30,000 bases of DNA, from positions 3,634 through 33,633 of the forward strand of contig NZ_JBKJYW010000348.1 in assembly GCF_046715635.1 (NCBI RefSeq), read 5' to 3'. Below, piece after piece: positions 1 through 29,655 of the stretch; the stretch's first letter is position 1, and each line of letters opens with the position of its first letter. Made by a program: the position numbers and the translations under genes. Source of the stretch: Serratia sp. (in: enterobacteria). Its GTDB lineage: Bacteria > Pseudomonadota > Gammaproteobacteria > Enterobacterales > Enterobacteriaceae. The notes under the pieces were generated by a model. It was not told the DNA's origin. It was given only the letters and a program-made list of their open reading frames with translations, and did no database searches.

Positions 1-230
1 TCACGGTTGTCTCACCGGGCTTTGTAGATACGCCGCTTACCCGTAAAAATGATTTTGCCATGCCCGGCCAGGTGAGCGTCGAGGATGCCGTGAAGGCGAT
101 CCGTCGCGGGCTGGCGAAAGGGAAAAAGCACATCGCCTTTCCCAGCGGATTCAGCCTGGTCATGAAGCTGCTTTCAGGGCTCCCCAATTTCCTTCAGCGC
201 AGGCTGTTGCGCAGGATGGTTCGCTCATGA
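1..230 (+). CDS. SDR-family oxidoreductase, C-terminal fragment (5' end lies upstream of the window)
   Basis: The frame is open from the window edge (codons phased from nt 3): TVVSPGFVDTPLTRKNDFAMPGQVSVEDAVKAIRRGLAKGKKHIAFPSGFSLVMKLL... The PGFVDTPL segment is the conserved stretch after the YxxxK catalytic region of classical short-chain dehydrogenases. Stop TGA 228-230 overlaps the next start (ATGA). It is absent from the ORF track because no start lies in the window. Confidence 0.7.
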   Translation, partial: TVVSPGFVDTPLTRKNDFAMPGQVSVEDAVKAIRRGLAKGKKHIAFPSGFSLVMKLLSGLPNFLQRRLLRRMVRS

Positions 231-1486
231 ACATCGCCATTATCGGCAGCGGTATCGCAGGGCTCACCTGTGCCTGGCGGCTGGCCGGACATCATCAGGT
301 CACGCTTTTCGAAGCGGCACCCAGGGTGGGTGGGCATACCGCCACGGTGGATGTCAGCACGCCGCAGGGCACGTATGCCATTGATACCGGGTTTATCGTC
401 TACAACGACCGTACCTATCCGCGCTTTATGGGCCTGCTCAGCGAGTTGGGCATCAGCGGGCAAAAAACGCAGATGAGCTTCTCCGTACATAATCCGCAAA
501 GCGGGCTTGAGTATAACGGCCACACCCTTACCTCGCTGTTTGCACAGCGTCGTAACCTGGTTAATCCAGCGTTCTGGGGGCTGCTGAGAGATATCATGCG
601 CTTCAACCGCCTGGCAAAAGAGGCGTTGGCGGACAACGTTAACGAAAACGCCACGCTGGGGACTTTTCTTGAACAGCACGGCTTCAGCGCGTTTTTCGCG
701 CGTCATTATATTCTGCCGATGGGGGCTGCCATCTGGTCCTCGTCGCTGCAGGAGATGCGCCGCTTCCCGCTTCCGCTGTTTTTGCGCTTCTTTGAGCATC
801 ACGGCCTGCTGGACGTCACTCAACGTCCGCAGTGGTATGTGGTGCCCGGAGGTTCTCGCGAGTACGTACGCGCCATTTTGACCCAGTTGGGTGACCGCCT
901 GACCCTGCACCTCAACGCACCGGTGCAACAGGTCATCCGCCACAACGGGGGAGTTGAAATCCAGCTTGCGCAGTCGAGCCACACGTTCGACCAGGTGATC
1001 TTCGCCTGCCATTCCTCACAGGCGCTGGCGATGCTTGCTCATCCAACTCCTGCAGAAAGCGAGGTTCTGGGCGATATTGGCTGGCAGCATAACGAGGTGG
1101 TTTTGCACAGCGATCCACGCTGGCTGCCGGTGCGCGAGCGTGCCTGGGCAAGCTGGAACTATCGCCTGAGCGAACGGGACCAGGCCAGCGCCTGCGTCAC
1201 CTACAACATGAATATCTTACAAGGGTTACCTGAGGGTAGCCCCCTGTTCTGCGTCACCCTGAACCCGGAAACGCCGGTGGACGAGCGCTACGTCTGGAAA
1301 CGCTTTGTCTACGAGCACCCGCTGTTTAACCCGCAAAGCTGGCGCGCCCAGTCTCGCCGCAGCGAGATTAACGGCCACCAACGGAGCTGGTTCTGTGGAG
1401 CTTACTGGTACAACGGTTTTCACGAGGATGGGGTACGCAGCGCGCTGGACGTGGTGAAAGGGATCGCTGCAGGGGAGGACCTGTAA
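227..1486 (+). CDS. NAD(P)/FAD-dependent oxidoreductase (amine-oxidase / phytoene-desaturase-like; UfaD-like by context)
   Basis: 419-aa ORF. The N-terminal Rossmann fingerprint is MNIAIIGSGIAGLTCA (GxGxxG), followed by LFEAAPRVGGH. It sits directly upstream of a DUF1365 gene and a CFA-synthase-like gene, the canonical neighbourhood for this family. ATGA overlap with the upstream SDR. Confidence 0.85.
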   Translation: MNIAIIGSGIAGLTCAWRLAGHHQVTLFEAAPRVGGHTATVDVSTPQGTYAIDTGFIVYNDRTYPRFMGLLSELGISGQKTQMSFSVHNPQSGLEYNGHTLTSLFAQRRNLVNPAFWGLLRDIMRFNRLAKEALADNVNENATLGTFLEQHGFSAFFARHYILPMGAAIWSSSLQEMRRFPLPLFLRFFEHHGLLDVTQRPQWYVVPGGSREYVRAILTQLGDRLTLHLNAPVQQVIRHNGGVEIQLAQSSHTFDQVIFACHSSQALAMLAHPTPAESEVLGDIGWQHNEVVLHSDPRWLPVRERAWASWNYRLSERDQASACVTYNMNILQGLPEGSPLFCVTLNPETPVDERYVWKRFVYEHPLFNPQSWRAQSRRSEINGHQRSWFCGAYWYNGFHEDGVRSALDVVKGIAAGEDL

Positions 1487-1487
1487 G

Positions 1488-2201
1488 ATGAACAGCTGCC
1501 TTTACCAGGGTGTGTTACGCCATCGTCGCTTCCAGCCGAAATCACACCATTTTCGCTATAACGTGTTTATGGCCTGGATCGATCTGGACGAGCTGGATGC
1601 GCTGCCGTCGGCGGGGATCCGCCGTAATCGATTTGCCGCGGCCGCCTTCCATGATGCGGATTACCCACTCGGCACACCGCTTAAAGAGAACGCCCTCGAC
1701 CGGCTGCAAACCCTGACCGGGGAACGTCCCGATGGCCGCGTCATGCTCCTGACCCAGCTTCGTTATTTCGGCTTCCATTTTAATCCAATCAATCTCTACT
1801 ACTGCTATGACAGTACGGGCATCCTGCGCTGGTTGCTGGCCGAAGTGCGCAACACCCCGTGGAACGAGCGCCATTACTATGCGGTGGATGGCCAGGCGGC
1901 TCGCCCGCAGCCGAAAGCCTTCCATGTCTCCCCGTTTAATCCGATGGATATGGTCTATCACTGGCGCTTCAACGCCCCCGGTAAAACGCTGCATATGCAT
2001 ATCGAAAATCATCAGGAGTCGAAGGTGTTCGACGCCACGCTCGCGCTTCGCCGTGAGCACCTAACGCGCGCGACCCTGAGAGCGATATTGCTGCGCATAC
2101 CGCTGATGACCCTGAAAACCGTCCTGGCGATTTACTGGCAAGCGTTACGGCTGTGGCTTAAACGCGTGCCGTTGTACAACCATCCCGTTAGAAGGAGTTA
2201 G
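1488..2201 (+). CDS. DUF1365 family protein (UfaO-like by context)
   Basis: 237-aa ORF. The N-terminus LYQGVLRHRRFQPKSHHFRYNVFMAWIDLDEL matches my recollection of the DUF1365 signature (hRRxxPxxHxFxYxxFxxxxDLDEL). The start is 1 nt after the upstream TAA, with GGGGAGGA as Shine-Dalgarno (SD). Confidence 0.8.
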   Translation: MNSCLYQGVLRHRRFQPKSHHFRYNVFMAWIDLDELDALPSAGIRRNRFAAAAFHDADYPLGTPLKENALDRLQTLTGERPDGRVMLLTQLRYFGFHFNPINLYYCYDSTGILRWLLAEVRNTPWNERHYYAVDGQAARPQPKAFHVSPFNPMDMVYHWRFNAPGKTLHMHIENHQESKVFDATLALRREHLTRATLRAILLRIPLMTLKTVLAIYWQALRLWLKRVPLYNHPVRRS

Positions 2202-2206
2202 CGCTC

Positions 2207-3427
2207 ATGACCGATCCTGCCTTTGCGCTTGAATCCGATATCCCTCGTAACGCCCGTATCGCGCGCTGGCTACTCTTTCGTTTGCTGAGCGGTATCCGCG
2301 AGGGCTCGCTCACCGTGCGTGAAGGACAGCAGACCCTCCATTTTGGCGATGAGTCTTCCGCGCTGCGTGCTGAAGTGCAGATCCTCGCGCCGGGTGTTTA
2401 CTGGCGTCTGCTCACCGGCGGCAGCCTCGCCGCGGCCGAATCCTGGATGGAGGGTGAGTGGGAGACGCATCAGTTAACCCCGCTTTTGCAGATCCTGGCC
2501 CTCAACGGCAAGGTGCTGGGAAGGCTGGAAAGTGGCTTTCGCCTGCTGGGCAATCCCTTGGAGCGGCTTCGCCACTGGACGCGGCGTAACTACCGCAAAC
2601 AGGCGCGGGAAAACATCGCTGCCCATTACGACCTGGGTAACGAATTCTATGCGCACTTTCTCGATGAAGATCTGCTCTACTCCAGCGCGCTGTTCACCGC
2701 CGACGACCAGGCTCTCTCCCAGGCCCAGCAGGCAAAAATGGCGCGCCTGTGCGAACAACTGGGGCTGACCGCAAGCGATCACCTGCTGGAAATCGGCACT
2801 GGCTGGGGGGCGATGGCGGAATACGCCGCCCGTCACTACGGCTGCCGCGTCACTACCACGACGCTGTCGCAGGAGCAGTACATCTGGGCTACAGAGCGGA
2901 TTGCCCGCGCGGGATTGCAGGACAGAGTTCAGGTTCTGCTGTGCGACTACCGCGACCTGACCGGAGAATTCGACAAACTGGTATCGGTTGAGATGATTGA
3001 AGCCGTGGGTAAACGCTACCTGCCGGACTTCTTCCGCACCTGTCAGGCGCGCCTGCGCCCGGGCGGCAGAATGGCGATTCAGGCCATCACCATTCAGGAT
3101 CAGCGCTACCGCGACTACAGCAAAAGCGTCGATTTTATCCAGCGTTACATCTTCCCCGGCGGGTTTCTACCGAGCATCACGGCAATGAGTGAACTGATGA
3201 CGCGTCACACCGATTTTGTCGTCCGTAATCTGTTCGATATGGGGCCAGACTATGCCCGCACGCTGACGCACTGGCGGCAACGTTTTCTGCACGCCTGGCA
3301 GGACATTGAAAAGCTCGGTTTCGATGAAAGGTTCCGCCGTATGTGGCTCTACTACTTTGGCTACTGCGAAGCCGGTTTTAACGCACGCACCATCAGCGTG
3401 GTGCAACTGACCGCAGAGCGCGTATGA
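2207..3427 (+). CDS. Cyclopropane-fatty-acyl-phospholipid synthase family SAM-dependent methyltransferase
   Basis: 406-aa ORF. It carries AHYDLGNEFYAHFLD (the CMAS-family N-terminal block), SAM motif I LLEIGTGWG, and the C-terminal WRQRF...W..Y..YCEAGF block typical of Cfa/mycolic-acid-synthase-like enzymes. GAAGGAG SD lies 9 nt upstream. Confidence 0.88.
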   Translation: MTDPAFALESDIPRNARIARWLLFRLLSGIREGSLTVREGQQTLHFGDESSALRAEVQILAPGVYWRLLTGGSLAAAESWMEGEWETHQLTPLLQILALNGKVLGRLESGFRLLGNPLERLRHWTRRNYRKQARENIAAHYDLGNEFYAHFLDEDLLYSSALFTADDQALSQAQQAKMARLCEQLGLTASDHLLEIGTGWGAMAEYAARHYGCRVTTTTLSQEQYIWATERIARAGLQDRVQVLLCDYRDLTGEFDKLVSVEMIEAVGKRYLPDFFRTCQARLRPGGRMAIQAITIQDQRYRDYSKSVDFIQRYIFPGGFLPSITAMSELMTRHTDFVVRNLFDMGPDYARTLTHWRQRFLHAWQDIEKLGFDERFRRMWLYYFGYCEAGFNARTISVVQLTAERV

Positions 3428-3909
3428 ACCGCTCTGTGCAGGTCGTGCTGATGGCTCTCGCGTTCGATCTCTACTGGACGCTGGTAGTGTTGTTTCGCGA
3501 GCGTGGACTGTTTCTGTGGCTCGCCCTGGCGATCCTGGCCTGGCTGATGCTGTCGCCTGCACACCGTGTTTACGCCCTGCTGCTGGCCGCAGCGGGCAGC
3601 GGTCTGGATGCTCTCTGGGTGCTGACAGGGCTGATCGGCTTTAACAGTGACGCTCTGTTGCCCCTGTGGATGATGGCGCTGTGGCTGATGTTCGCTACCG
3701 TCTGGACCCACTTGACCTTCACGACCACGCTGCCGGGGTGGATGCTGGCTCTGCTGGCAACCGTTGGCGGTCCCGTAGCGTATGTGATTGGCGAACGTCT
3801 GGGCGCCATTACCTTCCGGGAGCCGACCTTTATCGTCGTCAGTTGGATGGCACCGGGTTGGCTGGTTCTGATGTTGTTGTTCCATATTCTGACGGGGAGG
3901 CGACAATGA
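3424..3909 (+). CDS. DUF2878 family integral membrane protein
   Basis: 161-aa ORF that is almost entirely hydrophobic, with about 4-5 predicted TM segments (e.g. VVLMALAFDLYWTLVVLF, LWLALAILAWLML, VYALLLAAAGSGLDALWVL). ATGA overlap on both sides. The position after the CFA-like gene is typical for DUF2878. The family name is from memory of this neighbourhood, not a search. Confidence 0.65.
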   Translation: MNRSVQVVLMALAFDLYWTLVVLFRERGLFLWLALAILAWLMLSPAHRVYALLLAAAGSGLDALWVLTGLIGFNSDALLPLWMMALWLMFATVWTHLTFTTTLPGWMLALLATVGGPVAYVIGERLGAITFREPTFIVVSWMAPGWLVLMLLFHILTGRRQ

Positions 3910-4433
3910 GAACTTCTTTACTGATGCTGCTGTGGTTGGCGGCCATCGCGCCCGTCGCCCATGCTGCCGACTGGTTAAGCTGGCGCAAAGTGGGTGATGC
4001 CAGCCTCACATGGGGGCCGTTTACCGTTTATACCTCCCAACTGAGCACGCCGGATGGCCGGTATCACGGGCCGGAGCAGGATCAGGCGCTGATTATTACC
4101 TACAAACGCGATATCGATCGCGACCAGTTGGTCGAAGCCACCCGTGACCAGTGGCAGGCGCAGGGGATCCTGGAGCGCGAACCACAGAGCGAAGCCTGGC
4201 TGCGCATGCTGCAGTCACTCTGGCCGGACGTCACGCCGGGTTCTCAGCTTACCTTTGTTCTCAAGGGTAAGCAGGGGCAGTTCTGGTATCGCGCCTCAGC
4301 GGCAGAAAAAAGCTTTACCCCGCTCGGCCCCAGCCAGTCTGCAACCTTCAGTACCAACTTTCTGGCCATCTGGCTCGATCCACGCACGCAATATCCCGAA
4401 CTACGTCAGCAGTTGATCGGAGGTGAAAAATGA
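3906..4433 (+). CDS. Secreted chalcone-isomerase-fold (CHI-like) family protein
   Basis: This uses the internal start of track ORF 3666..4433. ATG 3906 overlaps the upstream stop (ATGA) and opens a classic Sec signal peptide, MRTSLLMLLWLAAIAPVAHA/AD. The 175-aa size and operon position match the CHI-like proteins I recall in these clusters. The fold assignment is unverified. Confidence 0.55.
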   Translation: MRTSLLMLLWLAAIAPVAHAADWLSWRKVGDASLTWGPFTVYTSQLSTPDGRYHGPEQDQALIITYKRDIDRDQLVEATRDQWQAQGILEREPQSEAWLRMLQSLWPDVTPGSQLTFVLKGKQGQFWYRASAAEKSFTPLGPSQSATFSTNFLAIWLDPRTQYPELRQQLIGGEK

Positions 4434-4960
4434 AACGCATTCTGACACTTGGCCTGGCGCTGATGATGCTTCTGGTGGGTTGTAGCACAGACATCAGCGA
4501 CTATCGGCATCAACAACCGTCGCTAGATATCTTCCACTACTTCCAGGGGAAAACCGAGGCATGGGGCATGGTACAGGACCGCAGCGGAAAACAGCTGCGC
4601 CGCTTCCACGTGGAAATCACTGGCAACGTCATCGGCGACACGCTGACGCTAAATGAACACTTTGTCTATGACGATGGCGAGAAGCAGCAACGGGTGTGGC
4701 ATATCCGGCGCGTGGGTGCCAATCGCTACGAAGGTACTGCAGGCGATATTGAAGGTGTGGCCAGCGGCGTGGCGGAAGGCAACGCCTTTAACTGGCGTTA
4801 CAGCATGAACGTGAAAGCCAATGGCAGTACCTGGCTGCTTCACTTTGATGACTGGATGTACCTGCAGGATGACACGCATCTGTTTAATAAAACAGAGATG
4901 AAGAAATTCGGCATCACCGTCGGTCAGGTAACGCTTTTCTTCACCCGAAAAGAACAGTAA
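4430..4960 (+). CDS. DUF3833 family (lipocalin-like) lipoprotein
   Basis: 176-aa ORF with a lipoprotein signal peptide and lipobox, MKRILTLGLALMMLLVGC/S. GGAGGTG SD and ATGA overlap with the upstream gene. The DUF3833 name is recalled from the conserved neighbourhood. Confidence 0.6.
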   Translation: MKRILTLGLALMMLLVGCSTDISDYRHQQPSLDIFHYFQGKTEAWGMVQDRSGKQLRRFHVEITGNVIGDTLTLNEHFVYDDGEKQQRVWHIRRVGANRYEGTAGDIEGVASGVAEGNAFNWRYSMNVKANGSTWLLHFDDWMYLQDDTHLFNKTEMKKFGITVGQVTLFFTRKEQ

Positions 4961-4972
4961 GAGGATAGCGAC

Positions 4973-5932
4973 ATGAATAAGCAACCCGTCATTGGGATCA
5001 GCGGATGTTTAACCGGCTCGACCGTACGGTTTGACGGTGGACATAAACGCATGAGCTTTGTCATGGACGGGCTGGCGCAGTGGGTGACCTTCAAACCCAT
5101 CTGCCCGGAGATGGCCATCGGCCTACCCGCGCCCCGTCCGGCCCTGCGCCTGGTTCAGACCACCAAAGGGGATTTCCGGCTGCACTTCAGCCAAGCTCCT
5201 CACGACGATGTGACGGAAAAAATGGCCGAATTCACGGATTCCTATCTCTCACATCTGGACGAACTATCAGGCTTTATCGTCTGCGCGAAATCGCCGAGCT
5301 GCGGTATGGAACGCGTACGGTTGTACGATGAAAAAGGCAATCGCGGGCGTAAAGAGGGCGTGGGCGTCTTTACCAGGGCGCTGCTGGAGAAATACTCGTG
5401 GTTACCGGTAGAAGAAGATGGCCGCCTGCACGATCCGGTGCTGCGGGAAAACTTTGTCGAGCGCATCTTCGCCCTGCACGAGTTGAACACCCTGAAGGCC
5501 AACGGCCTGACCCGCCATGCGCTGCTGGACTTCCACAGCCGGTACAAACTCCAGCTGCTGGCACACCACCAAGCAGGCTACCGAGAAATTGGACCGTTTG
5601 TCGCCTCGTTGCACGAGTGGGAAGACCTGGACGCATTCTTCGTGGCTTATCGCGAAAAACTGATGACGATCTTGAGAAAACCCGCCTCGCGCAAGAATCA
5701 CACCAACGTGTTGATGCACATTCAGGGGTATTTTCGTAACCAGTTGAACTCACGCCAGCGCGGCGAGCTGAATAACGTGATCCTCCACTATCGCGAGGGG
5801 CTGCTGCCAATACTCGCTCCGTTAACGCTGCTGAAGCATTATCTGGGCGAATACCCAGACCGCTACCTGCTGACGCAAAAATACTTTGACCCCTATCCGC
5901 AGAATTTAGCTTTGCGGCTGGCGATTAATTAA
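4973..5932 (+). CDS. ybgA: YbgA family protein (DUF523 + DUF1722)
   Basis: 319-aa ORF. The N-terminus KQPVIGISGCLTGSTVRFDGGHKR and the later CAKSPSCGMERV match the DUF523 2-thiouracil-desulfurase-like half. The C-terminal half (HALLDFHSRYKLQLLAHH...NVLMHIQGYF) matches DUF1722. GAGGA SD 7 nt upstream. Confidence 0.8.
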   Translation: MNKQPVIGISGCLTGSTVRFDGGHKRMSFVMDGLAQWVTFKPICPEMAIGLPAPRPALRLVQTTKGDFRLHFSQAPHDDVTEKMAEFTDSYLSHLDELSGFIVCAKSPSCGMERVRLYDEKGNRGRKEGVGVFTRALLEKYSWLPVEEDGRLHDPVLRENFVERIFALHELNTLKANGLTRHALLDFHSRYKLQLLAHHQAGYREIGPFVASLHEWEDLDAFFVAYREKLMTILRKPASRKNHTNVLMHIQGYFRNQLNSRQRGELNNVILHYREGLLPILAPLTLLKHYLGEYPDRYLLTQKYFDPYPQNLALRLAIN

Positions 5933-5959
5933 GTGCGCATGATGAGAAGGTCAGAATGC

Positions 5960-5984
5960 CCCTGATAGGAGACCCTTATCAGGG
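5960..5984 (+). terminator. Hairpin after ybgA, a candidate operon terminator (weak U-tract)
   Basis: CCCTGATAGG-agac-CCTTATCAGGG. There are 8 contiguous pairs (5960-5967 with 5977-5984) plus 2 more with a 1-nt bulge, followed by TTTG. It is the only strong hairpin downstream of the 8-gene operon. Confidence 0.45.
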
Positions 5985-6182
5985 TTTGCCGTTGCCACTT
6001 CATACAACGCCAGCAGCGGCCCACATACAGCGTTTTCACCTTCATTGGGCTTTAGCACGTCATCCATGGAGTTTGAGTCGGTTTTGCTTGGTAAGTCAGT
6101 ACACTCGCAGTGTCTCCGCTGACATCCCGTTGCATTAATCAGCAGGGAGCAGATCACGGCATCGTTATAGATACTTTTACTG

Positions 6183-6881
6183 TCAAAACGGACAAGCATT
6201 ACGAGCCTTGATCAACTCCCCACTAATAGGATGAACAAAATCCAACCCACTGGCATGCAGCATCAGTCGAGGAGACCCTTCGGTGCCTGGCAGCAAGAGA
6301 CCGCCGTACAGGTCGCAGCCCAAAATAGGATGGTCTAGTTGCTGGCAGTGAATGCGAAGTTGATGGGTGCGCCCGGTTTCTGGGGTTAGCTCTACCCGCG
6401 TCAACGGCATTAACGTCCCGTCTCCCAACTCGCGATAAAAGCGCTCAACGACCCGATAGCGGGAACGAGCGGGTTTGCCGTGGATTGAGCAAATAGACAT
6501 TAGCGGGAACAGCGCCGGGTCTTTGGCAATCGCAGCGTCTATCACCCCTTGGTCATCGTCCAGATGTCCGCAGAGCAGCGCACTGTAAAACTTGGTCACG
6601 GTGCGCTGGCTGAACTGGTGGCAAAGAGCGGCATTGATAGCCTTATTGCGGGCAACCACCATCAGCCCGGAAGTGCCGAAATCTAGGCGGTGGACCAGGG
6701 TGCAGCCGGGGAATATCTTCACCAACCGATGATGCACCGAATCGAGATTTTGCGGATTCTTCCCCGAGAGGCTGAGCAGCCCGGCGGGTTTATCGATCAG
6801 CACCAGATGATCGTCCTGATAGAGAACCTCTATCTCGTCATGGCACGGCGGGGCAATAAAGGTATCGAGGATCGTAGACAT
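6183..6881 (-). CDS. RluA-family pseudouridine synthase
   Basis: 232-aa ORF. It carries VLYQDDHLVLIDKPAGLLS (the RluA N-terminal block), the catalytic-Asp motif VHRLDFGTSGLMVVA (HRLDxxTSG), and TGRTHQLRIHCQQLDHPILGC (GRxHQLRxH...GHPIxGD-like). By eye it is only about 35-40% similar to E. coli RluA, so I give no orthologue symbol. Confidence 0.85.
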   Translation of the reverse strand: MSTILDTFIAPPCHDEIEVLYQDDHLVLIDKPAGLLSLSGKNPQNLDSVHHRLVKIFPGCTLVHRLDFGTSGLMVVARNKAINAALCHQFSQRTVTKFYSALLCGHLDDDQGVIDAAIAKDPALFPLMSICSIHGKPARSRYRVVERFYRELGDGTLMPLTRVELTPETGRTHQLRIHCQQLDHPILGCDLYGGLLLPGTEGSPRLMLHASGLDFVHPISGELIKARNACPF

Positions 6882-6997
6882 CGGGCTGCCGGATGGAGAA
6901 TGAGGGCGGATAATAACGAATTTTCAGCCAACTGACGAATCTGGCTGACGTGGCGCTCCCCCAATGACGTAATCTGAACCCATCTATGCGCCCCCCT

Positions 6998-7019
6998 CTT
7001 TTATGCATCTGCATAAAAG
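6998..7019. promoter_or_regulatory. Perfect 10-bp inverted repeat (candidate operator) in the rluA-like / acyl-CoA ligase divergent region
   Basis: CTTTTATGCA-tc-TGCATAAAAG. The arms are exact reverse complements. It lies 117 bp upstream of the rluA-like start and 224 bp upstream of the ligase start. Confidence 0.35.
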
Positions 7020-7162
7020 CAAAACCCGTCACTCACCATTCCCATCATAATTTTTATCATTTTTGATAACATTTGCTAACCAGCACGTCATAACATCGAT
7101 TTTTTTGCCCTCCCCGGATTGGCATTTTATACAAAGCGTCGGCCCCGTTTGCCGAAGAAAGA

Positions 7163-7206
7163 TGTGAAATTTTGCGCATTCTTGCACCGTTGCCTTTCCC
7201 TATACT
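7163..7206 (+). promoter_or_regulatory. Candidate activator-dependent promoter of the acyl-CoA ligase gene: -10 TATACT plus a CRP-like site
   Basis: TATACT lies at 7201-7206 with no good -35 at 16-18 bp spacing (TTCTTG/ATTCTT). TGTGA-aatttt-GCGCA at 7163-7178 matches the left CRP half-site 5/5 and the right 3/5. It is centred about -42.5 relative to a TSS predicted near 7213, which is class II-like geometry. Confidence 0.3.
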
Positions 7207-7242
7207 CACCACCATCAGTAAATGTCGGTGAAGGGGCAAGCT

Positions 7243-8784
7243 ATGCAGCAGGTAAAAATCACACACCTCTATCAGAGCTTACAGCAGAGCGTTAACCGCC
7301 GGGCTGAGCATACCGCCCTGTTCTTTGAAGGCCACAAATACAGTTATAATCAGTTAAATCATAATGTTAATTTATCTGCCGCCTGCCTGAAAGAGAGTTT
7401 TAACCTCGCCAAAGGCGATGTGATCGTCCTGGCTCTGGGTAACCGACCTGAATTCTGCTCGCTGTTTTATGCAGCCATGGCGCTGGGGATTATCGTGGTG
7501 CCGTTAAGCACCAAGTTAAAATCGCAAGACAGCCATATCATCCTGTCCAGTGTTAATGCCAAGGCGGTGTTTTACGATCCCAACAGTCAGCCGTGGATGG
7601 CAGCGCTGGAACCCGTGAAGCAAAGCCATGTGGTGTCGCTGGCCGATTGGCAACTGATGCTCAGTAATGCAGATGACCAAAAGGTGATCCAACCCGTAGA
7701 GCCTGTCGCCATCGTAGCGGATGATATTGCCTCGATTATTTATACTTCCGGCACTACTGGCTCCCCGAAAGGAGCAGCGCTCACTCACGGTAACTTTATT
7801 GCGGCCATCACGGCTTATCAGCAGGCTCTGAAGTTAACCGAACAAGACAGCGCCATCCTGCCAATCCCCATCTGTCATATTACCGGTCTGTCGGCTCTGC
7901 TCTGCCTGTTTATTCACCTTGGCGGCACGTTGCATTTGCAGCAAAGGTTCAATGCAGAAGAGATCTTAAAAACCGTCAGCAGCCATAACATTACCTTCCT
8001 GCATGGTTCGCCAACGGTGTTTATCCTACTGTTGCAAGAAGCGGAAAAGTATCCACAGGTGGGGAACTACACCAGCTTGCGGATGATCGCTTGCGGTGCC
8101 GGGCATTTGAACGTGGGAATTATCGAAAGGCTCGCGCAGCTGTTCCCAGCTACGGAAATCAGGCCGATCTATGGGCTGACAGAAACCTCTTCACCGGCCA
8201 GCATTTTCCCGGTCGATGTTCGCAGCAGCGATAAGATAGGCAGTTCTGGCTTACCCATTCCCGGCCTGAGTTGCCAAATCCGCGACGATAATCTCCAGGT
8301 ACTTGCTGCCGGTGAAATTGGTCATCTGTGGCTGAAAGGGCCGGTGGTCATGAGCCAGTACTGGAAGAACCCGGCGGCGAATCAGCAGTTCTTCCACGAC
8401 GGCTGGTTCTACACCGGCGATATCGCCTGCCTCGATCAGGATAACTATTTGTATATCAAAGATCGCAGCAAGGACATGATCAACCGCGGCGGTGAGAAAA
8501 TATACTGCATTGAAGTGGAAAACCTGATCTCGAATTATCCTGGCGTCAAGGAAATTGCCATTGTTCCCAGCAGCAGCGAAATCTACGGAGAAGAAGCCGT
8601 CGCCTTTATTGTGGCACACCGGAATAAACCCTTGGTCAGCGATAATATTATTCACTGGCTCTCGAATAAAATCGCCAAATTTAAAGTACCTTCAAAAATC
8701 GTCTTTGCAGCAGAATTACCGAAAAATGCCAACGGTAAAATAGATAAATTGGCATTACGAAAAAAACTAACACCGCCAATATGA
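7243..8784 (+). CDS. AMP-forming acyl-CoA synthetase / fatty-acid-CoA ligase (class I adenylate-forming enzyme)
   Basis: The motifs present are IIYTSGTTGSPKGA (A3/P-loop), YGLTET (A5), GWFYTGD (A7), DRSKDMINRGGEKI (A8) and the C-terminal NGKIDK (A10 Lys). I chose the start at ATG 7243 (GAAGGGG SD 6 nt upstream) rather than track start 7222, which has no SD. Confidence 0.9.
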   Translation: MQQVKITHLYQSLQQSVNRRAEHTALFFEGHKYSYNQLNHNVNLSAACLKESFNLAKGDVIVLALGNRPEFCSLFYAAMALGIIVVPLSTKLKSQDSHIILSSVNAKAVFYDPNSQPWMAALEPVKQSHVVSLADWQLMLSNADDQKVIQPVEPVAIVADDIASIIYTSGTTGSPKGAALTHGNFIAAITAYQQALKLTEQDSAILPIPICHITGLSALLCLFIHLGGTLHLQQRFNAEEILKTVSSHNITFLHGSPTVFILLLQEAEKYPQVGNYTSLRMIACGAGHLNVGIIERLAQLFPATEIRPIYGLTETSSPASIFPVDVRSSDKIGSSGLPIPGLSCQIRDDNLQVLAAGEIGHLWLKGPVVMSQYWKNPAANQQFFHDGWFYTGDIACLDQDNYLYIKDRSKDMINRGGEKIYCIEVENLISNYPGVKEIAIVPSSSEIYGEEAVAFIVAHRNKPLVSDNIIHWLSNKIAKFKVPSKIVFAAELPKNANGKIDKLALRKKLTPPI

Positions 8785-8927
8785 AAGCAAGCGGTGTTTA
8801 ATTAAGTGCGCAAACATCAGGAAACGTGAAGCGCAACCATTAAAACAATAGAGCACCTGTACCTCTAACAATAATACAGAAAAGCTCTACCCTGTTTAAT
8901 CGCCTCATTACGAGGAGGAGCCTTATC

Positions 8928-10283
8928 ATGTCAAACCGGCCGTTAGATATTGCATCGAAAAGCCAGGCGGCAATAACGAATGCAAAAATATATAAACACC
9001 TGATGCCGTTACTGATCATTGTTTATATCATCAGCTTTATCGACAGAACCAATATCGGCATTGCCCGAGCCTCGATGTCCATCGATCTTGGCCTTTCCGC
9101 TACCGCCTATGGGTTGGGAGCCGGTCTGTTCTTTCTGACCTATTCCACCATGGAGATCCCCAGCAACCTGATTATGGCACGGGTCGGGGCCCGATTCTGG
9201 ATCACCCGCATCATGTTCACCTGGGGTGTGATTTCCGCCGGTATGGCCTTCGTCACCGGCCCTACCTCGTTCTATGTCATGCGTCTGTTGCTAGGGGCGG
9301 CAGAAGCGGGGCTGTACCCCGGTATCATCCTGTATCTTACCTACTGGTTTGGCCGTGAAGATCGCGCCAGAGCCGTCGGCATGTTCCTGCTTGGTGTCTG
9401 TATCGCCAATATTGTCGGGGCGCCATTGGGCGGCGCATTGCTGATGCTGGATGGCCTGGGTGGGCTGCACGGCTGGCAATGGATGTTTATCGTGGAAGGG
9501 CTCCCGGCGGTGCTGCTGGCATTTTATGTGTATGCCGTACTACCCAATAAACCACGCGATGCCAAATGGCTGACCAAAACCGACATTGAGTATATTGAAA
9601 ACAAGCTGGCCGCGGAGCAACCGGTTGGGGTAGATAAGAACCAGAAGTTTTCCTTTAAAACGGCGTTTACCAATAAGACCTTCATGCTGATCGTGGCGAT
9701 TTATTTCACCCATCAGATTTCGGTCTACAGCCTGACCTATTTTCTGCCCAGCATTATCAACAGCTACGGCAAAATGAGCACCCTGATGCTCGGCCTGTTA
9801 ACCGCCATTCCGTGGATCGCGGCAGCCTTGGGTGGCTTCTTCCTGCCCAAATATGCCAATACCGCCACCCGCTCACGCATCATGCTGGTGTCCGGCTTTA
9901 TGTCGATGGCCGTCGGTTTCCTGATTGGCGTGCTGGGTGGCCCAGTATTAGGGCTGATCGGCTTCTGTATCGGTGCTTCGATGTTCTTCGTCGTGCAGTC
10001 CATCATCTTTACCTACCCGGCCACGCTGATGAGCGGCCCCATGCTCGCTGGCGGGTTGGGGTTACTGGCTTGCCTTGGCATCACCGGCGGGTTCTTCGGG
10101 CCATATGTGTTCGGTCTCCTGGAGGATAGAACGGGGTCACCTAGCGCAGGCCTGTGGTTTGCCATCGTGCTGCAGACCCTTGCCATCATCGGGGCTGCAC
10201 GGGTGAAACAACCCGCAGGCAGCAAAGATAAACCGGCCAATCAATGCCCCCCGGCAGCAATGAATAGCGTGATTGAGAAATAG
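8928..10283 (+). CDS. MFS transporter, anion:cation symporter (ACS) family (tartrate/sugar-acid/aromatic-acid transporter-like)
   Basis: 451-aa ORF with about 12 hydrophobic segments. The N-terminal block YIISFIDRTNIGIA...L..S...YG.GAG.FF..Y...EIPSN and the LRLLLGAAEAGLYPG..LYLT.WF block are characteristic of TtuB/ACS-family MFS proteins. Strong GAGGAGGAG SD. Confidence 0.85.
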   Translation: MSNRPLDIASKSQAAITNAKIYKHLMPLLIIVYIISFIDRTNIGIARASMSIDLGLSATAYGLGAGLFFLTYSTMEIPSNLIMARVGARFWITRIMFTWGVISAGMAFVTGPTSFYVMRLLLGAAEAGLYPGIILYLTYWFGREDRARAVGMFLLGVCIANIVGAPLGGALLMLDGLGGLHGWQWMFIVEGLPAVLLAFYVYAVLPNKPRDAKWLTKTDIEYIENKLAAEQPVGVDKNQKFSFKTAFTNKTFMLIVAIYFTHQISVYSLTYFLPSIINSYGKMSTLMLGLLTAIPWIAAALGGFFLPKYANTATRSRIMLVSGFMSMAVGFLIGVLGGPVLGLIGFCIGASMFFVVQSIIFTYPATLMSGPMLAGGLGLLACLGITGGFFGPYVFGLLEDRTGSPSAGLWFAIVLQTLAIIGAARVKQPAGSKDKPANQCPPAAMNSVIEK

Positions 10284-10292
10284 AGCCTAAAC

Positions 10293-10312
10293 GCGGTGCC
10301 CTGGTGCACCGC
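10293..10312 (+). other. Intercistronic stem-loop between the MFS and CoA-transferase genes
   Basis: GCGGTGC-cctggt-GCACCGC, a perfect 7-bp GC-rich stem with no U-tract. It starts 10 nt after the MFS stop. Confidence 0.4.
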
Positions 10313-10334
10313 CGCACAGACGTAAGGTAGCAAT

Positions 10335-11912
10335 ATGAGAAATAAAGTCATTTCGGCTCAGCAGGCCGCAGAGTTAGTGAATAACGGCTCGACCCTGTGC
10401 ACCATCGGCATGACATTGATTGGGGCCGCGGAGTCGATCTTGAAAGCTCTGGAAAAGCGCTTTCTTGCAACAGGGGCACCGCACGGGCTGACCTATATTC
10501 ACTCTGCGGGGCAGTCGAATCGTGAGCGCGGTAATCAGCATTTTACCCCGCCAGGCATGGTAAAACGCATTATTGGTTCGCACTGGGGGCTGGCACCCAA
10601 GTGGATGGAAAAGATTGCCGCCAACGAGGTCGAAGCCTTCTGTCTGCCACAAGGGCAGATTGTCCATCTGTATACGGCCATGGCGGCCGGTCAGGCCGGA
10701 TATCTGTCCAAAGTGGGGCTAGGCACCTTTATCGATCCCCGCCTGGAAGGCGGCAAAATGAATACGTTGACCCGCTCCCTGCCAGATTTGGTGGAAGTGG
10801 TTAGCCTGCGCGAGGAGGAATATCTGTTCTATCCGGCACTCCCGCTGGATACGGTGATCATTCGTGGCACTACGGCGGATACCGCTGGCAACCTCACCTG
10901 TGAGGAAGAGGCCATGAAGCTGGAGATCCTGCAGGCGGTGCTGGCGGCTAAACGCTTTGGTGGCAAGGTGATAGTCCAGGTAAAAAACCTGGCGGAAAAA
11001 GGGAGTCTGCACCCGAAACAGATCGTGGTGCCGGGGAATTTTATTGATGCCATTGTGGTATGTGAAGACCCCGAGCAAGACCACCGCCAGACCTCTTCCT
11101 GGTTCTATGATCCAGCCTATTGCGGCAACCTGGTGACCCCTGCCAGCGCAGTGGAAACGCTGCCGCTCAACATCCGCAAGGTGATTGGTCGCCGAGCTTG
11201 TCAATTTCTATCCCCGGACTGTGTGATCAATCTGGGCACCGGTATTCCCAACGATGTTATTGGCACTATTATCCATGAAGAAGGGGTAAGCGAAGCGGTC
11301 ACCATCACGGTTGAATCAGGTATCTACGGCGGCGTACAGGCCGGTGGGGTTGATTTTGGCATCGGTAAAAACCTGACCGCCATGATTAACCATCAGGAGC
11401 AGATGCTGTATTACAACGGTGCGGGTGTGGATATTACCTATATGGGGGCGGGCGAGATGGACGCCAACGGGCATATCAACGCCACCCGCATGGGGGACCG
11501 CTGTACCGGGGCCGGAGGGTTTATCGATATCACCCAAAATGCACACCACGTGGTGTTTTGCTCCACCTTTACCGCCAAGGGGCTGGAGGTGGCATGCCAG
11601 CAAGGGCAATTAACCATTCTACAGGAAGGCTCGGTTAAAAAACTGGTGCGGTCGATTAACCAGATTTCCTATAACGGCGAAATAGCCCGCCAGAAAAAAC
11701 AAAAAATGCATTTGGTCACTGAGCGAGCAGTGTTTGAACTGACGGCGCAAGGTCCGATGTTGATAGAAATCGCCCCCGGCATCGATCTTGAGCGGGACAT
11801 CCTGCAACAAATGGAGTTTATGCCGCTGATTTCCCCCTCATTAAAACAGATGGACGCGGCACTATTTTGTGATGCCCCTTTTGGCCTGAAGGAAATGCTG
11901 GCCAGGCAGTAA
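10335..11912 (+). CDS. Acyl-CoA:acetate/3-ketoacid CoA-transferase, single-chain (YdiF-like family I CoA-transferase)
   Basis: 525-aa ORF. The length and blocks (ISAQQAAELVNNGSTLCTIG; GLTYIHSAGQ; IIGSHWGL; ITVESGIYGG, where the family's catalytic Glu is expected; GAGGFIDITQNA) match fused alpha/beta CoA-transferases such as E. coli YdiF, as I recall them. Confidence 0.85.
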   Translation: MRNKVISAQQAAELVNNGSTLCTIGMTLIGAAESILKALEKRFLATGAPHGLTYIHSAGQSNRERGNQHFTPPGMVKRIIGSHWGLAPKWMEKIAANEVEAFCLPQGQIVHLYTAMAAGQAGYLSKVGLGTFIDPRLEGGKMNTLTRSLPDLVEVVSLREEEYLFYPALPLDTVIIRGTTADTAGNLTCEEEAMKLEILQAVLAAKRFGGKVIVQVKNLAEKGSLHPKQIVVPGNFIDAIVVCEDPEQDHRQTSSWFYDPAYCGNLVTPASAVETLPLNIRKVIGRRACQFLSPDCVINLGTGIPNDVIGTIIHEEGVSEAVTITVESGIYGGVQAGGVDFGIGKNLTAMINHQEQMLYYNGAGVDITYMGAGEMDANGHINATRMGDRCTGAGGFIDITQNAHHVVFCSTFTAKGLEVACQQGQLTILQEGSVKKLVRSINQISYNGEIARQKKQKMHLVTERAVFELTAQGPMLIEIAPGIDLERDILQQMEFMPLISPSLKQMDAALFCDAPFGLKEMLARQ

Positions 11913-11989
11913 AAACGGGCGGCACGACATATTTATTATCTCTGCGCTAATTCAGCGTGGTCAGGAATTAAAACGATAAGGAGTACCCT

Positions 11990-12727
11990 ATGTGTTTAAC
12001 AAATAAAGTGGCTATCGTCACCGGGGCCAGCCGTGGTCTTGGGCGAGGCATTGCCCAGGTATTGGCTGAAAAAGGGGCCGCCGTAGTTATTTGTGATGTC
12101 GACCAGGACGGCGGCAATAAAACCGCCGCCGAATTGGTGAGCGCGGGCCATACAGCTATTTTCATCGCCTGTAATATTGCCAACCGCGAAGAGGTTAACC
12201 AGTTATTTATTGCCGCGGAGCAGCAACTGGGGCCGATAGATATTCTGGTCAATAACGCCGGGATTAACCGTGATGCCATGTTGCACAAGCTAACGGAAGA
12301 GAATTGGGATCTGGTGATGGATATCAACCTGAAAGGGACCTTCCACTGTATGCAGGAAGCCGCCGTACGCATGCGTGAGCGCGCCTGCGGGCGGATCATC
12401 AATATCTCGTCGGCCAGCTGGTTGGGCAATGTGGGGCAGGCCAACTATGCCGCTTCAAAAGCCGGGGTGATCGGCCTGACCAAAACGGCCTGCCGGGAGC
12501 TGGCAAAAAAAGGGGTTACCGTTAACGCCATCTGCCCAGGCTTTATCGAAACCGATATGACCCGCGGAGTACCGGAAAAAGTATGGGATATCATGATCGG
12601 CAAAATTCCCGCAGGTTTCGCTGGCGATCCGGTTGATGTCGGCCATTGCGTCGCCTTCCTGGCTTCCGACGAGGCACGCTATATCAACGGCGAAGTGATC
12701 AACGTTGGCGGCGGCATGGTGCTGTAA
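11990..12727 (+). CDS. SDR-family 3-oxoacyl-(ACP/CoA) reductase (FabG / PhaB acetoacetyl-CoA reductase-like)
   Basis: 245-aa ORF with TGASRGLGRG (TGxxxGxG), NNAG, the catalytic YAASKAG (YxxxK) and PGFIETDM. By eye the overall block pattern is close to PhaB/FabG. AAGGAG SD 6 nt upstream. Confidence 0.9.
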   Translation: MCLTNKVAIVTGASRGLGRGIAQVLAEKGAAVVICDVDQDGGNKTAAELVSAGHTAIFIACNIANREEVNQLFIAAEQQLGPIDILVNNAGINRDAMLHKLTEENWDLVMDINLKGTFHCMQEAAVRMRERACGRIINISSASWLGNVGQANYAASKAGVIGLTKTACRELAKKGVTVNAICPGFIETDMTRGVPEKVWDIMIGKIPAGFAGDPVDVGHCVAFLASDEARYINGEVINVGGGMVL

Positions 12728-12737
12728 GGAGAATCGA

Positions 12738-13922
12738 ATGAAAAATGCAAATGACATTGTCGTCGTCAGCGGCGTACGCACGGCGATCGGCACCATGGGC
12801 GGTAGCTTTAAAGATACGCACCAGCATGATTTAGGCGCAGCGGTGATCCGTGAAGCCGTGGCCCGTGCCGGGCTGCAACCAGCACAAATTGATGAGGTGG
12901 TGGTAGGTAACGTCGGGCAAATCGCGGAGAGTGGTTTTATCGCCCGCATTTGCCAACTGCGCGCTGGCTTACCGAACGAAACAACGTCCTATTCGGTGAA
13001 CCGCCAGTGCGGTTCGGGTCTGCAAGCGATTGTCGATTGCATGCTGGAACTGCAAACCGGCAATGCCGAGATCACCGTCGCCTGTGGGACAGAGAATATG
13101 ACTCAACTGCCCCACTATATTCGCAAGGCTCGTTACGGTTATCGCCTTGGGCACGGAGAGCTGGAAGACGGCATCGTCTCTATTTTAACCTGGCCGGAAG
13201 GCCCTTATCACAATGGCATGACCGCCGAATTCGTCGCGGAGCGTTTTAACATCAGCCGTGAGGCGATGGACGAGTTTGCCTGGTGCAGCCAGCAAAAAGC
13301 CTTGGCAGCCATCAAAGAGGGGCATTTTACCTCACAAATCCTGCCGCTGGAGGTTCGTGAAGGCAAGAACAGCCGCCTGTTTGCCACTGATGAACACCCA
13401 AGGGATACGCCGAAAGAGAAGTATGCTCAGCTGAAACCGGCGTTTAAAAAAGACGGCACGGTTACGGCAGCAACGTCATCAGGTATCAATGATGGGGCCG
13501 CCGCGCTGGTTGTCACTACCCGAGCCAACGCTGAAAAACTGGAGCTGCCAATCAGGATGGTGATCCGCGGTTGGGCAGTGGCAGGTTGCGAGGCAGAAAT
13601 CATGGGCTTTGGCCCAGCTCCGGCAACTCGTAAACTGATGCAAAAGTTGAACATGTCGGTGCATGATATCGACCTTATTGAGCTTAATGAGGCCTTTGCC
13701 GCCCAATCATTGGCGGTGATTAACGATCTGGAGCTGGATCCGGCCAAAGTGAACGTCAATGGGGGAGCAATTGCGCTGGGGCACCCTGTTGGGGCCAGCG
13801 GGGCCATCATCGCTGTAAAACTGATGTATGAGATGGAGCGCCGCGGCGTCAATACCGGTTTAGCCACCATGTGTATCGGTGGAGGCCAAGGGATCTCTAT
13901 GCTGTTTGAGCGGGAAAGGTAG
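12738..13922 (+). CDS. Acetyl-CoA C-acetyl/acyltransferase (thiolase II-like)
   Basis: The motifs present are VNRQCGSGLQA (nucleophilic Cys), NEAFAAQ, NGGAIALGHPVGASG (His) and CIGGGQG (C-terminal Cys). The start is ATG 12738 (MKNANDIVVVSGVRTAIG, AAGGAG SD), not track start 12705. 394 aa. Confidence 0.93.
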   Translation: MKNANDIVVVSGVRTAIGTMGGSFKDTHQHDLGAAVIREAVARAGLQPAQIDEVVVGNVGQIAESGFIARICQLRAGLPNETTSYSVNRQCGSGLQAIVDCMLELQTGNAEITVACGTENMTQLPHYIRKARYGYRLGHGELEDGIVSILTWPEGPYHNGMTAEFVAERFNISREAMDEFAWCSQQKALAAIKEGHFTSQILPLEVREGKNSRLFATDEHPRDTPKEKYAQLKPAFKKDGTVTAATSSGINDGAAALVVTTRANAEKLELPIRMVIRGWAVAGCEAEIMGFGPAPATRKLMQKLNMSVHDIDLIELNEAFAAQSLAVINDLELDPAKVNVNGGAIALGHPVGASGAIIAVKLMYEMERRGVNTGLATMCIGGGQGISMLFERER

Positions 13923-13950
13923 TCTCTTAAGTTAGCGCAATAGATATTTC

Positions 13951-13977
13951 CGGCCCTCTGCCAAAGAGAGGGTCGGA
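13951..13977. terminator. 10-bp stem-loop after the thiolase gene (possible terminator or REP-like element; no U-tract)
   Basis: CCGGCCCTCT-gccaaag-AGAGGGTCGG, with 9 Watson-Crick pairs and 1 G.U. There is no T-run on either strand. The core CCCTCT..CCAAAG..GAGAGGG resembles the hairpin of the 22238-22431 repeats. Confidence 0.35.
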
Positions 13978-14107
13978 TGGCAAACATCGGCTTACGCATT
14001 GAGTTAACTGAATTGTATTAAGTTTAATACGTAGATTTGTTGATGGGTCAATAAGGTTACCGTGAAATTGGCAAGAAACATTCGATATTATATTTAACCC
14101 CCCTCAC

Positions 14108-14113
14108 TATAAT
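14108..14113 (+). promoter_or_regulatory. Consensus -10 hexamer (TATAAT) upstream of the CdaR-family gene
   Basis: Perfect TATAAT 23-29 bp upstream of the two candidate start codons. The -35 is poor (ATATTA at 17-bp spacing). The surrounding intergenic region is AT-rich. Confidence 0.3.
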
Positions 14114-14135
14114 AGAGGTTTTATATCATAAAGGT

Positions 14136-22197: not shown

Positions 22198-22237
22198 GCA
22201 TTTCTCCTTATGACCAAAAATATAACCTAACCTTGTT

Positions 22238-29456: not shown

Positions 29457-29655
29457 CCCTGTGCCTTCTGCGCGATGATAAAATGAAGAGTCACCTTTTG
29501 ATGTGGCAAGGCCCCGTTCCTGCTCGATTGAAAACAACGCAATACCCTGATATTAAAAATCATGAAGCAACTTCAATTTCTTTGCCAAGCATCAGGTTAG
29601 CTCTACAAAGCTATCAAGCCTAGCCGACGAAGAAAACCATTAAGCACTATTTTTT

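Follow-up and report, generated by a model that had tools for sequence, protein, structure and literature searches.

A Serratia operon with a furan fatty acid-type enzyme set and a terminal RudS gene: a probable enterobacterial version of a photo-oxidative-stress module

Introduction

What does a tightly packed operon of lipid-enzyme, envelope-protein and tRNA-enzyme genes make in Serratia, and which signal turns it on? The operon in question lies at positions 1-5932 of a 30,000-nucleotide stretch of a Serratia sp. genome (RefSeq assembly GCF_046715635.1, contig NZ_JBKJYW010000348.1, positions 3,634 to 33,633 of the forward strand; hereafter, the window), whose encoded proteins are ~97% identical to those of Serratia fonticola and S. 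silvae. A previous reading, made from the letters of the window without database searches (the sequence-only reading), had described an eight-gene lipid-modification operon whose chemistry might still be undescribed. Having followed up that reading with profile, structure and synteny analyses, we consider it probable that the operon represents, in enterobacteria, a pan-proteobacterial module for photo-oxidative stress, in which the synthesis of furan fatty acids (FuFAs) is combined with the removal of an ultraviolet-sensitive tRNA base.

FuFAs are rare and valuable antioxidant lipids, and their bacterial pathway has been worked out only in two alphaproteobacteria. The cluster is common in Klebsiella, Enterobacter, Citrobacter, Serratia, Pectobacterium and Dickeya, genera that are both genetically easy and of clinical and agricultural importance. 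If our explanation is correct, these bacteria would possess a light-switched programme that guards membranes (through FuFA) and translation (through RudS) together. No new chemistry is opened by this analysis; rather, a known system is extended and its unexplained accessory parts are highlighted. The handles it offers are, for regulation, a defined operator and a candidate repressor from the MlrA/BluR family, and, for the accessory functions, two envelope proteins with lipid-binding folds, a short-chain dehydrogenase/reductase (SDR), and the SnoaL and DUF2878 proteins.

Results and Discussion

Organization of the operon

Positions 1-5932 hold the 3' part of the unit, with one partial gene and seven complete genes (Table 1). 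The earlier count of eight genes reflects the edge of the window, which cuts the unit: the operon of close relatives begins with a SnoaL/NTF2 gene, followed by an SDR gene of full length. Because these two genes overlap by an ATGA in an S. fonticola locus (L005; SnoaL/NTF2 at 8845-9288, SDR at 9285-10004), the operon comprises nine genes, in the order SnoaL/NTF2, SDR, UfaD-like, UfaO-like, CMAS, DUF2878, chalcone isomerase (CHI)-fold, DUF3833, and RudS.

The seven gene junctions within positions 1-5932 had all been placed correctly by the sequence-only reading, to the nucleotide. Read directly from the sequence, four of them are 4-nt ATGA stop/start overlaps (227-230, 3424-3427, 3906-3909, and 4430-4433), and the others are a TAAgATG at 1484-1490, a 5-nt gap at 2201/2207, and a 12-nt gap before 4973. 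A purine-rich, Shine-Dalgarno-like run precedes each start. Such tight packing makes translational coupling plausible, though not required. The family assignments proposed before were also upheld, in that searches with Pfam and NCBIfam profiles put the products in the named families; only the CHI fold needed a structure model.

Table 1. Features of the operon region (positions of the window) and the long relatives of its CMAS protein
Feature	Location	Strand	Length, match or remark
SDR oxidoreductase gene, 3' end	1..230	+	75 codons; NCBIfam PRK06101; start upstream of window
UfaD-like FAD-dependent oxidoreductase, putative fatty-acyl desaturase	227..1486	+	419 aa; Amino_oxidase, NAD_binding_8
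UfaO-like DUF1365 protein, putative O2-dependent furan-ring-forming enzyme	1488..2201	+	237 aa; DUF1365
CMAS-family SAM methyltransferase, in-cluster ("plant-type") subfamily, putative UfaM-like cis-vaccenate methylase	2207..3427	+	406 aa; CMAS
DUF2878 small polytopic inner-membrane protein	3424..3909	+	161 aa; Pfam DUF2878
Periplasmic CHI-fold protein, fatty-acid-binding-protein-like	3906..4433	+	175 aa; AlphaFold model and Foldseek
DUF3833 lipoprotein, calycin-like 10-strand beta-barrel	4430..4960	+	176 aa; Pfam DUF3833, AF2
RudS (TudS desulfidase + DUF1722), predicted tRNA 4-thiouridine desulfidase	4973..5932	+	319 aa; Pfam
Intergenic hairpin, candidate weak intrinsic terminator	5960..5984	+	10-bp stem, 5-nt loop
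Long CMAS representatives	P0262, P0264, P0245, P0255, P0278 and others		600-775 aa
FAD, flavin adenine dinucleotide; SAM, S-adenosylmethionine.

The lipid enzymes

The product of the second gene in the window matches Pfam Amino_oxidase (1.3e-26) and NAD_binding_8 (2e-15), with weak NCBIfam matches to desaturases of the HpnE/CrtI class. The next gene, which starts one nucleotide past the stop of the second, encodes a protein that matches Pfam DUF1365 over its full length (2.1e-82) and has no solved relative by sequence. In a synteny survey, performed with tblastn over 80 related loci, the gene for the FAD enzyme was always directly 5' of the DUF1365 gene. UfaD is an NAD/FAD-binding, phytoene-desaturase-like protein and UfaO a DUF1365 protein (Lemke et al. 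2020, PMC7380195), confirming the link that had been drawn to the operon RSP1087-1091 of Rhodobacter sphaeroides. In that species UfaD (RSP1091) desaturates 11-methyl-12t-18:1 to the 10,12-diene, and deletion of RSP1087, RSP1088, or RSP1089 caused no change in fatty acids (PMC7380195). In Rhodopseudomonas palustris, the adjacent genes RPA2571-2570-2569 encode UfaD, UfaO, and UfaM, a set that is both necessary and sufficient for the methylated furan fatty acid (PMC7380195), and their order of FAD oxidoreductase, DUF1365 protein, and CMAS protein is identical to that in the window. The three genes are also consecutive in Halomonas, the in-cluster methylase of which yielded 11-methyl-octadec-12-enoate when expressed in E. 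coli.

The likeness to R. sphaeroides extends to the SDR gene (RSP1087), which lies within the operon there as it does here, and to a stress-protective context that is common to both. The two systems differ in that (i) the R. sphaeroides FuFA set is under sigmaE-ChrR control, while a regulator of the MerR/MlrA type is associated with the present operon, and (ii) the working methylase of R. sphaeroides, UfaM (RSP2144), is encoded outside its operon, while the methyltransferase gene of the window is inside. Further, the window operon has extras relative to the Rhodopseudomonas and Rhodobacter Ufa sets: SnoaL, DUF2878, the CHI-fold protein, DUF3833, and RudS.

The methyltransferase itself matches Pfam CMAS (6.5e-87) and is 35% identical to E. 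coli Cfa, with which it has in common the CMAS fold, the SAM motifs, and equivalents of E239 and Y317. Against the NCBIfam Cfa equivalog, however, it scored 271.7 bits and failed the cut-off of 400, and the bicarbonate-ligand positions C139/E239/H266/Y317 of Cfa are represented in it by S160/E265/Q292/Y349. Judged by this score and by the incomplete ligand set, it is not a canonical Cfa; unlike Cfa, it is encoded in an operon with a DUF1365 gene, and its relatives include fusions to DUF1365. Glutamine occupies the H266 position in 146 of the 150 nearest representatives at the 50%-identity cluster level (the remaining four being short fragments), as well as in the in-cluster CMAS proteins of Rhizobium, Pseudoalteromonas, and Photobacterium, while histidine is kept in E. 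coli Cfa and in a second, out-of-cluster homologue of Rhizobium. A homologue search with the protein returned Enterobacterales only, at 86-99% identity, and no named UfaM. Ten of the more diverse representatives, traced to their clusters, were for the most part metagenomic proteins without names (Alteromonas, Reinekea). Of three window proteins looked up by exact sequence, two had no entry and the third came from a 1.5-kb contig.

About 50 of the same 150 representatives are long proteins (Table 1), and nine of the ten that we scanned proved to be fusions of an N-terminal DUF1365 domain to a C-terminal CMAS domain. By the Rosetta-stone argument, these fusions connect the subfamily to which the methylase belongs with the family of furan-forming enzymes. 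The tenth, P0243, contains two CMAS domains instead. We also considered whether the combined H266Q and C139S substitutions might serve as a marker of UfaM chemistry, and rejected this use because the same pattern is present in active cotton cyclopropane synthases; the pattern marks the subfamily and not the product.

Several points weigh against the assignment of a furan product. Orthology to the UfaM, UfaD, and UfaO proteins that have been tested is drawn from family and synteny only. The S/E/Q/Y pattern, with both substitutions, occurs in cotton synthases that do make cyclopropane rings, and plant cyclopropane synthases have been described with the same conserved catalytic residues. RSP1089, the in-operon paralogue of R. 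sphaeroides, is dispensable, with no detectable role in FuFA synthesis (PMC7380195), and because UfaM is encoded elsewhere in that genome, operon position alone is no proof of UfaM activity. In addition, the methyl esters of the diene and of a cyclopropene fatty acid have identical mass spectra (PMC7380195), so that assignments made by gas chromatography-mass spectrometry only, such as that in Halomonas, are not decisive. The operon might, on these grounds, modify acyl chains without forming a furan, either by taking a cyclopropane on to a cyclopropene or another oxygenated species, or by stopping at the methyl-branched alkene or diene. We regard this as unlikely: the two bacterial in-cluster methylases that have been tested, RPA2569 of R. 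palustris and UfaM of Halomonas, yield the 11-methyl-12-ene and no ring, the DUF1365-CMAS fusions tie the CMAS subfamily to the furan-forming family, and a review cites furan acids from an enterobacterium, Enterobacter agglomerans (Shirasaka 1995, as cited there). The same characterized Ufa relatives, Halomonas product, and E. agglomerans citation speak against the suggestion that the chemistry of the operon is undescribed, which we now find unlikely, and the most likely product appears to be the known FuFA 9M5-FuFA. The broader proposal, that the acyl chains of phospholipids are modified, remains a reasonable one.

The terminal gene

The last gene had been labelled YbgA. Its product carries both a 2-thiour_desulf domain (DUF523; Pfam 1.4e-37, residues 7-149), which matches the TudS structure 6z92 in the PDB (E 1e-5), and a DUF1722 domain (4.6e-40, residues 192-309). 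This architecture identifies it as RudS, the full TudS-DUF1722 fusion, while E. coli YbgA consists of the DUF1722 half only (PMC11417400) and is inactive on 4-thiouridine (s4U). Consistent with this assignment, Cys12, Cys44, and Cys110, the [4Fe-4S] ligands, stand at positions identical to those of Salmonella RudS_ST, and the catalytic-type residues E46, S107, and S109 are present.

For several RudS orthologues, including Salmonella STM1389, tRNA s4U desulfidase activity has been shown, and associations of RudS with light-responsive operons and with relief of the growth arrest caused by ultraviolet A (UVA) have been described (PMC11417400). The Salmonella gene resembles that of the window in the two domains and three cluster-binding cysteines of its product, and in having a MerR-family regulator as a neighbour. 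The position of the window gene is different: here rudS is the terminal cistron of a lipid operon and not a stand-alone or photolyase-linked gene. The main text of the RudS paper mentions photolyase and carotenoid neighbours and not the lipid cluster (PMC11417400); the occurrence of RudS as the final cistron of a lipid operon is a new if modest observation.

Regulation

No LitR-type operator or promoter-like site was found within positions 1-5932 and, because of this, all eight genes there would depend on a promoter farther upstream. In more than 60 related loci, including some without an adjacent regulator gene, the SnoaL gene is preceded by an operator of the form AACTTGGACA-N12-TGTGTAAGTT. 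In the form TTGGACA-N12-TGTGTAAG, it overlaps a sigma-70-type promoter (TTGGAC-17 nt-TAAGTT) located ~70 nt before the SnoaL start. The combination of a 17-nt spacer with an operator that covers both hexamers points to repression by occupancy, and not to activation of the MerR type. The motif becomes a perfect palindrome, TGTACA-N12-TGTACA, in Mangrovibacter and a near-perfect one in Vibrionaceae; in Photobacterium it is found ahead of both the RudS genes and the MerR-photolyase unit, and in Buttiauxella a second copy stands before the separate RudS gene.

A similar site is known from the class II LitR repressors PplR1 and PmlR2 of Pseudomonas, for which DNase footprinting gave the consensus T(G/A)TACA-N12-TGTA(C/T)A, with Site 1 overlapping the -35 element, and which are released by a blue-light-activated LOV protein. 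The enterobacterial site fits this consensus, with degenerate half-sites. Genes homologous to those of the window are light-responsive in other bacteria: a phrB-SDR-FAD-ufaM region of P. mendocina is induced 25-33-fold by light, and VC1122, the "CFA synthase" of the V. cholerae cluster, is strongly induced by blue light.

A MerR-type regulator gene adjoins the cluster in Serratia and most other Enterobacterales. That of S. fonticola (L005, 7440-8177) encodes MerR, MlrA_helical, and MlrA_C domains, and its product has 43% identity with E. coli MlrA and 38% with BluR, the latter a repressor that is relieved by blue light through the BLUF anti-repressor BluF. Full-length similarity and the domain set are common to these proteins, while the targets differ (ycgZ-ymgABC and csgD in E. 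coli, a lipid/tRNA operon here), and no BLUF gene is adjacent here. The class II LitR (PplR1/PmlR1-2) regulon of P. putida and P. mendocina is similar in its gene set, which is homologous, in its control by a MerR-family protein (a putative repressor in the present case), in an operator over the -35 element, and in the inclusion of RudS. Unlike that regulon, the enterobacterial version has a regulator of MlrA/BluR architecture, diverged half-sites, and RudS as the last gene within the lipid operon; and whereas Pseudomonas class II LitR has a LOV partner and phrB, neither was identified beside the enterobacterial cluster. No gene for an extracytoplasmic function (ECF) sigma factor or for ChrR, the regulators of the R. 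sphaeroides set, was found in the L005 flanks. Where the sequence-only reading had treated the inducing signal as not established, the conserved LitR-type operator, the MlrA/BluR-type regulator of relatives, and the blue-light induction of homologous clusters make light or photo-oxidative stress the likely signal.

The case for light has its own weaknesses. Both operator and regulator lie outside the window and were seen in related loci; the enterobacterial half-sites, TGGACA and TGTGTA, deviate from TGTACA; and the closest E. coli paralogue of the regulator, MlrA, is an activator that answers to cyclic di-GMP (c-di-GMP) partners and not to light. The 21-kb flanks of L005 contain no photoreceptor gene, a photolyase gene was not identified beside any of the enterobacterial clusters examined, and BluF is reported to be absent from Yersinia and Salmonella. 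One could suppose, then, that in Enterobacterales the operon is not controlled by light at all, that its regulator is instead an MlrA-like activator responding to stationary phase or c-di-GMP, or that it obeys some other envelope or oxidative cue, with the site being a generic motif of the family. We find this doubtful. The site covers both promoter hexamers across a spacer of normal length, which is the geometry of a repressor and not of a MerR-type activator; in Vibrionaceae the motif recurs in front of RudS and of MerR-photolyase units; light induces the orthologous clusters of two further genera of Gammaproteobacteria; and the RudS paper discusses the lowering of tRNA s4U by UVA in Enterobacter cloacae (PMC11417400).

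In L005 (8272-8685) and four further loci (L032, L052, L054, and L060), a gene for a periplasmic, transthyretin-like/hydroxyisourate hydrolase (HIUase) protein, with its own hairpin, lies between the regulator gene and the operator. This insertion is absent from the site in most Enterobacterales.

Distribution

The gene order SnoaL-SDR-FAD-DUF1365-CMAS-DUF2878-CHI-DUF3833 is kept in Serratia, Klebsiella (including K. pneumoniae ATCC 13883), Enterobacter, Citrobacter, Kosakonia, Pectobacterium, Dickeya, Buttiauxella, and others, and, at 40-60% identity, in Photobacterium, Salinivibrio, and Thaumasiovibrio. In ~60 of the Enterobacterales loci the overlaps occur at the same relative coordinates; in Vibrionaceae they are not kept, and the genes are 20-120 nt apart. 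Outside these families, Rhizobium tropici has the FAD-DUF1365-CFAS genes (CFAS, cyclopropane fatty acid synthase) beside sigmaE-ChrR, and a Pseudoalteromonas locus has the order sigmaE-ChrR-RudS-PhrB-NTF2-SDR-FAD-DUF1365-CFAS-DUF2878-CHI-DUF3833. Because the same gene set is found under MerR-type or sigmaE-ChrR regulators across lineages, we read these clusters as one ancient module in which the regulators have been swapped.

Some individual loci deserve mention. The Pseudoalteromonas locus just described (L088; chromid of strain CF6-2, 997-10570), an uninterrupted same-strand array, is the most complete module seen. In Photobacterium (L077-L080, ~2460-4870), two tandem RudS paralogues occur, with TGTACA-N12-TGTACA-like sites before the first of them and before the MerR-photolyase unit. 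E. coli has truncated remnants only, in 13 of 5426 genomes. Of these, a chromosomal copy (L001) and a copy on plasmid p027_SK3a (L002) retain just the 3' end, namely a DUF2878 or CHI fragment, DUF3833, and RudS. IS5-family elements interrupt the plasmid remnant, whose neighbours are a carbohydrate porin gene and lacIZY, and the chromosomal one lies beside a porin gene and phosphotransferase system (PTS) sugar-utilization genes; the E. coli remnants look like hitch-hikers on a mobile sugar-utilization island.

One unit or several

The survey bears also on whether the nine genes act as one functional unit. RudS is terminal in most Enterobacterales, but clusters of the Enterobacter cloacae complex lack it, and it is divergent and upstream, with an operator of its own, in Buttiauxella (L024), and upstream in Pseudoalteromonas and in Vibrionaceae, in the latter beside a MerR regulator and a photolyase. 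The DUF2878 or CHI-fold gene is missing from some Klebsiella and Dickeya loci, and each gene has its own Shine-Dalgarno sequence. From this it could be argued that RudS, and perhaps the three envelope genes, are unrelated neighbours that are transcribed independently. We think this very unlikely, as the gaps within positions 1-5932 do not exceed 12 nt and the region is free of promoter-like sites and LitR-type operators, the separately located RudS still carries the same operator and hence belongs to the same regulon, and a cDNA amplicon from E. amylovora spans CFAS and DUF3833.

The hairpin that follows the last gene (z = -2.53 relative to shuffled sequences) had been presented as the only strong one. 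It is real, and it is the sole strong hairpin between genes; several windows inside genes, however, fold as well. In a sliding-window fold, the 36-nt windows at 4242 (-19.1 kcal/mol) and 3409 (-17.8 kcal/mol) were at least as stable. The U tract after the terminal hairpin is weak (UUU only): UUUGCCGUU. The hairpin was not called by a terminator scan. The gene downstream of it, for a pseudouridine synthase, is convergent.

One of the intragenic hairpins (3409-3444, -17.8 to -19.5 kcal/mol) encloses the ATGA overlap of the CMAS and DUF2878 genes and holds the AUG in the loop. Of all the starts in the set, that of DUF2878 is preceded by the weakest Shine-Dalgarno sequence. This start-hiding hairpin at the 3424 junction was considered as a coupling device and set aside, since beyond the S. 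fonticola group few loci have it in a strong form. An Rfam scan of positions 1-6200 found no family.

Accessory proteins

The sequence-only reading had taken the roles of four extra genes as not established. For the last of them, the supposed YbgA, this does not hold, given the published function of RudS; for the DUF2878, CHI-fold, and DUF3833 genes it does. Among the enzymes, the SDR fragment (75 aa, encoded at 3-227) matches positions 168-240 of the 241 of NCBIfam PRK06101 (E 5e-21), and its full orthologue in L005 is a protein of 239 aa with an adh_short domain. The DUF2878 protein (Pfam 7.6e-23) has a run of hydrophobic segments, and its gene keeps its position in the Enterobacterales, Photobacterium, and Pseudoalteromonas clusters.

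The product of the sixth gene in the window matched Chalcone_3 only below the Pfam threshold (E 0.0096). Its AlphaFold model (predicted local distance difference test score, pLDDT, 89.7) gave 48 Foldseek matches in the PDB at E<=1e-3, and the top 50 were all CHI, CHI-like, FAP3, or Aim18p structures, with template modelling scores (TM) of ~0.6; the modelled structure thereby confirms the CHI fold, which plant fatty-acid-binding proteins also have. The protein begins with a Sec signal peptide, MRTSLLMLLWLAAIAPVAHA/AD. The homologues are of 175 aa, a length that favours the ATG at 3906 as the start over a GTG at 3666.

The DUF3833 protein (Pfam 1.7e-66) has the lipobox LVGC with serine at +2, which suggests sorting to the outer membrane. 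Its AF2 model (pLDDT 91.6) has ten strands, and the Foldseek matches are to BFA1, the CpeS lyase, FABP-like Ycf58, nitrobindin, and lipocalins. Neither this protein nor the CHI-fold protein has a solved relative by sequence. The presence of two envelope proteins with modelled folds of the hydrophobic-ligand-binding kind, together with an inner-membrane protein, invites the speculation that they handle the modified lipid or its oxidation products.

Proposed mechanism

The families and folds of the proteins, the order and synteny of the genes, and the operator motif are observed; from them we infer what is made, that light induces the operon, and what the accessory proteins do, as follows. The MlrA/BluR-type MerR regulator would act as a repressor on the promoter palindrome and would be released by light or a light-derived signal, much as Pseudomonas class II LitR is. 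The CMAS enzyme would then methylate phospholipid-bound cis-vaccenate, the standard C18:1 of Enterobacterales, to 11-methyl-12-trans-18:1; the FAD enzyme would desaturate this to the 10,12-diene; and the DUF1365 enzyme, using O2, would close the furan ring to give 9M5-FuFA, a scavenger of singlet oxygen and radicals. More speculatively, the DUF2878, CHI-fold, and DUF3833 proteins might bind furan lipids or oxidation products or move them within the envelope, and the cytoplasmic SDR and SnoaL proteins might process oxidized products. RudS, for its part, would strip sulfur from s4U8 of tRNA and so limit near-UV cross-linking of tRNA and the consequent growth arrest.

A more elaborate version can be imagined, in which DUF2878, the CHI-fold protein, and DUF3833 form a dedicated route from the inner to the outer membrane for furan lipids or dioxo-ene products, and in which the operon is switched by a third MlrA/BluR paralogue with a novel sensor partner. 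We hold this version to be improbable.

Other features of the window

Downstream of the lipid operon, a co-directional set of genes at 7222-15302 encodes an AMP-binding, acyl-CoA-synthetase-like protein, a major facilitator superfamily (MFS) transporter, a CoA-transferase, an SDR, and thiolases, followed by a regulator of the PucR/CdaR type. The GC fraction is lower at the ends of this cluster (0.45-0.48 at 7-9 kb and 14-16 kb) than elsewhere (~0.57). These genes could represent an accessory island with catabolic functions, with the lipid operon on one side and the core region tldD-yhdP-rng-maf-mreDCB on the other.

Within that core region, beside mreB, the minus strand at 27525-29537 encodes a GAPES4-GGDEF-EAL protein (CsrD-like) that is unrelated to the lipid operon. 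Further, a match to Rfam Rev11, an antisense RNA of soft-rot Enterobacteriaceae, was found on the plus strand at 20099-20515 (99.9 bits, relative to a gathering threshold of 91.3), where it is antisense to yhdP (18385-22245, minus strand).

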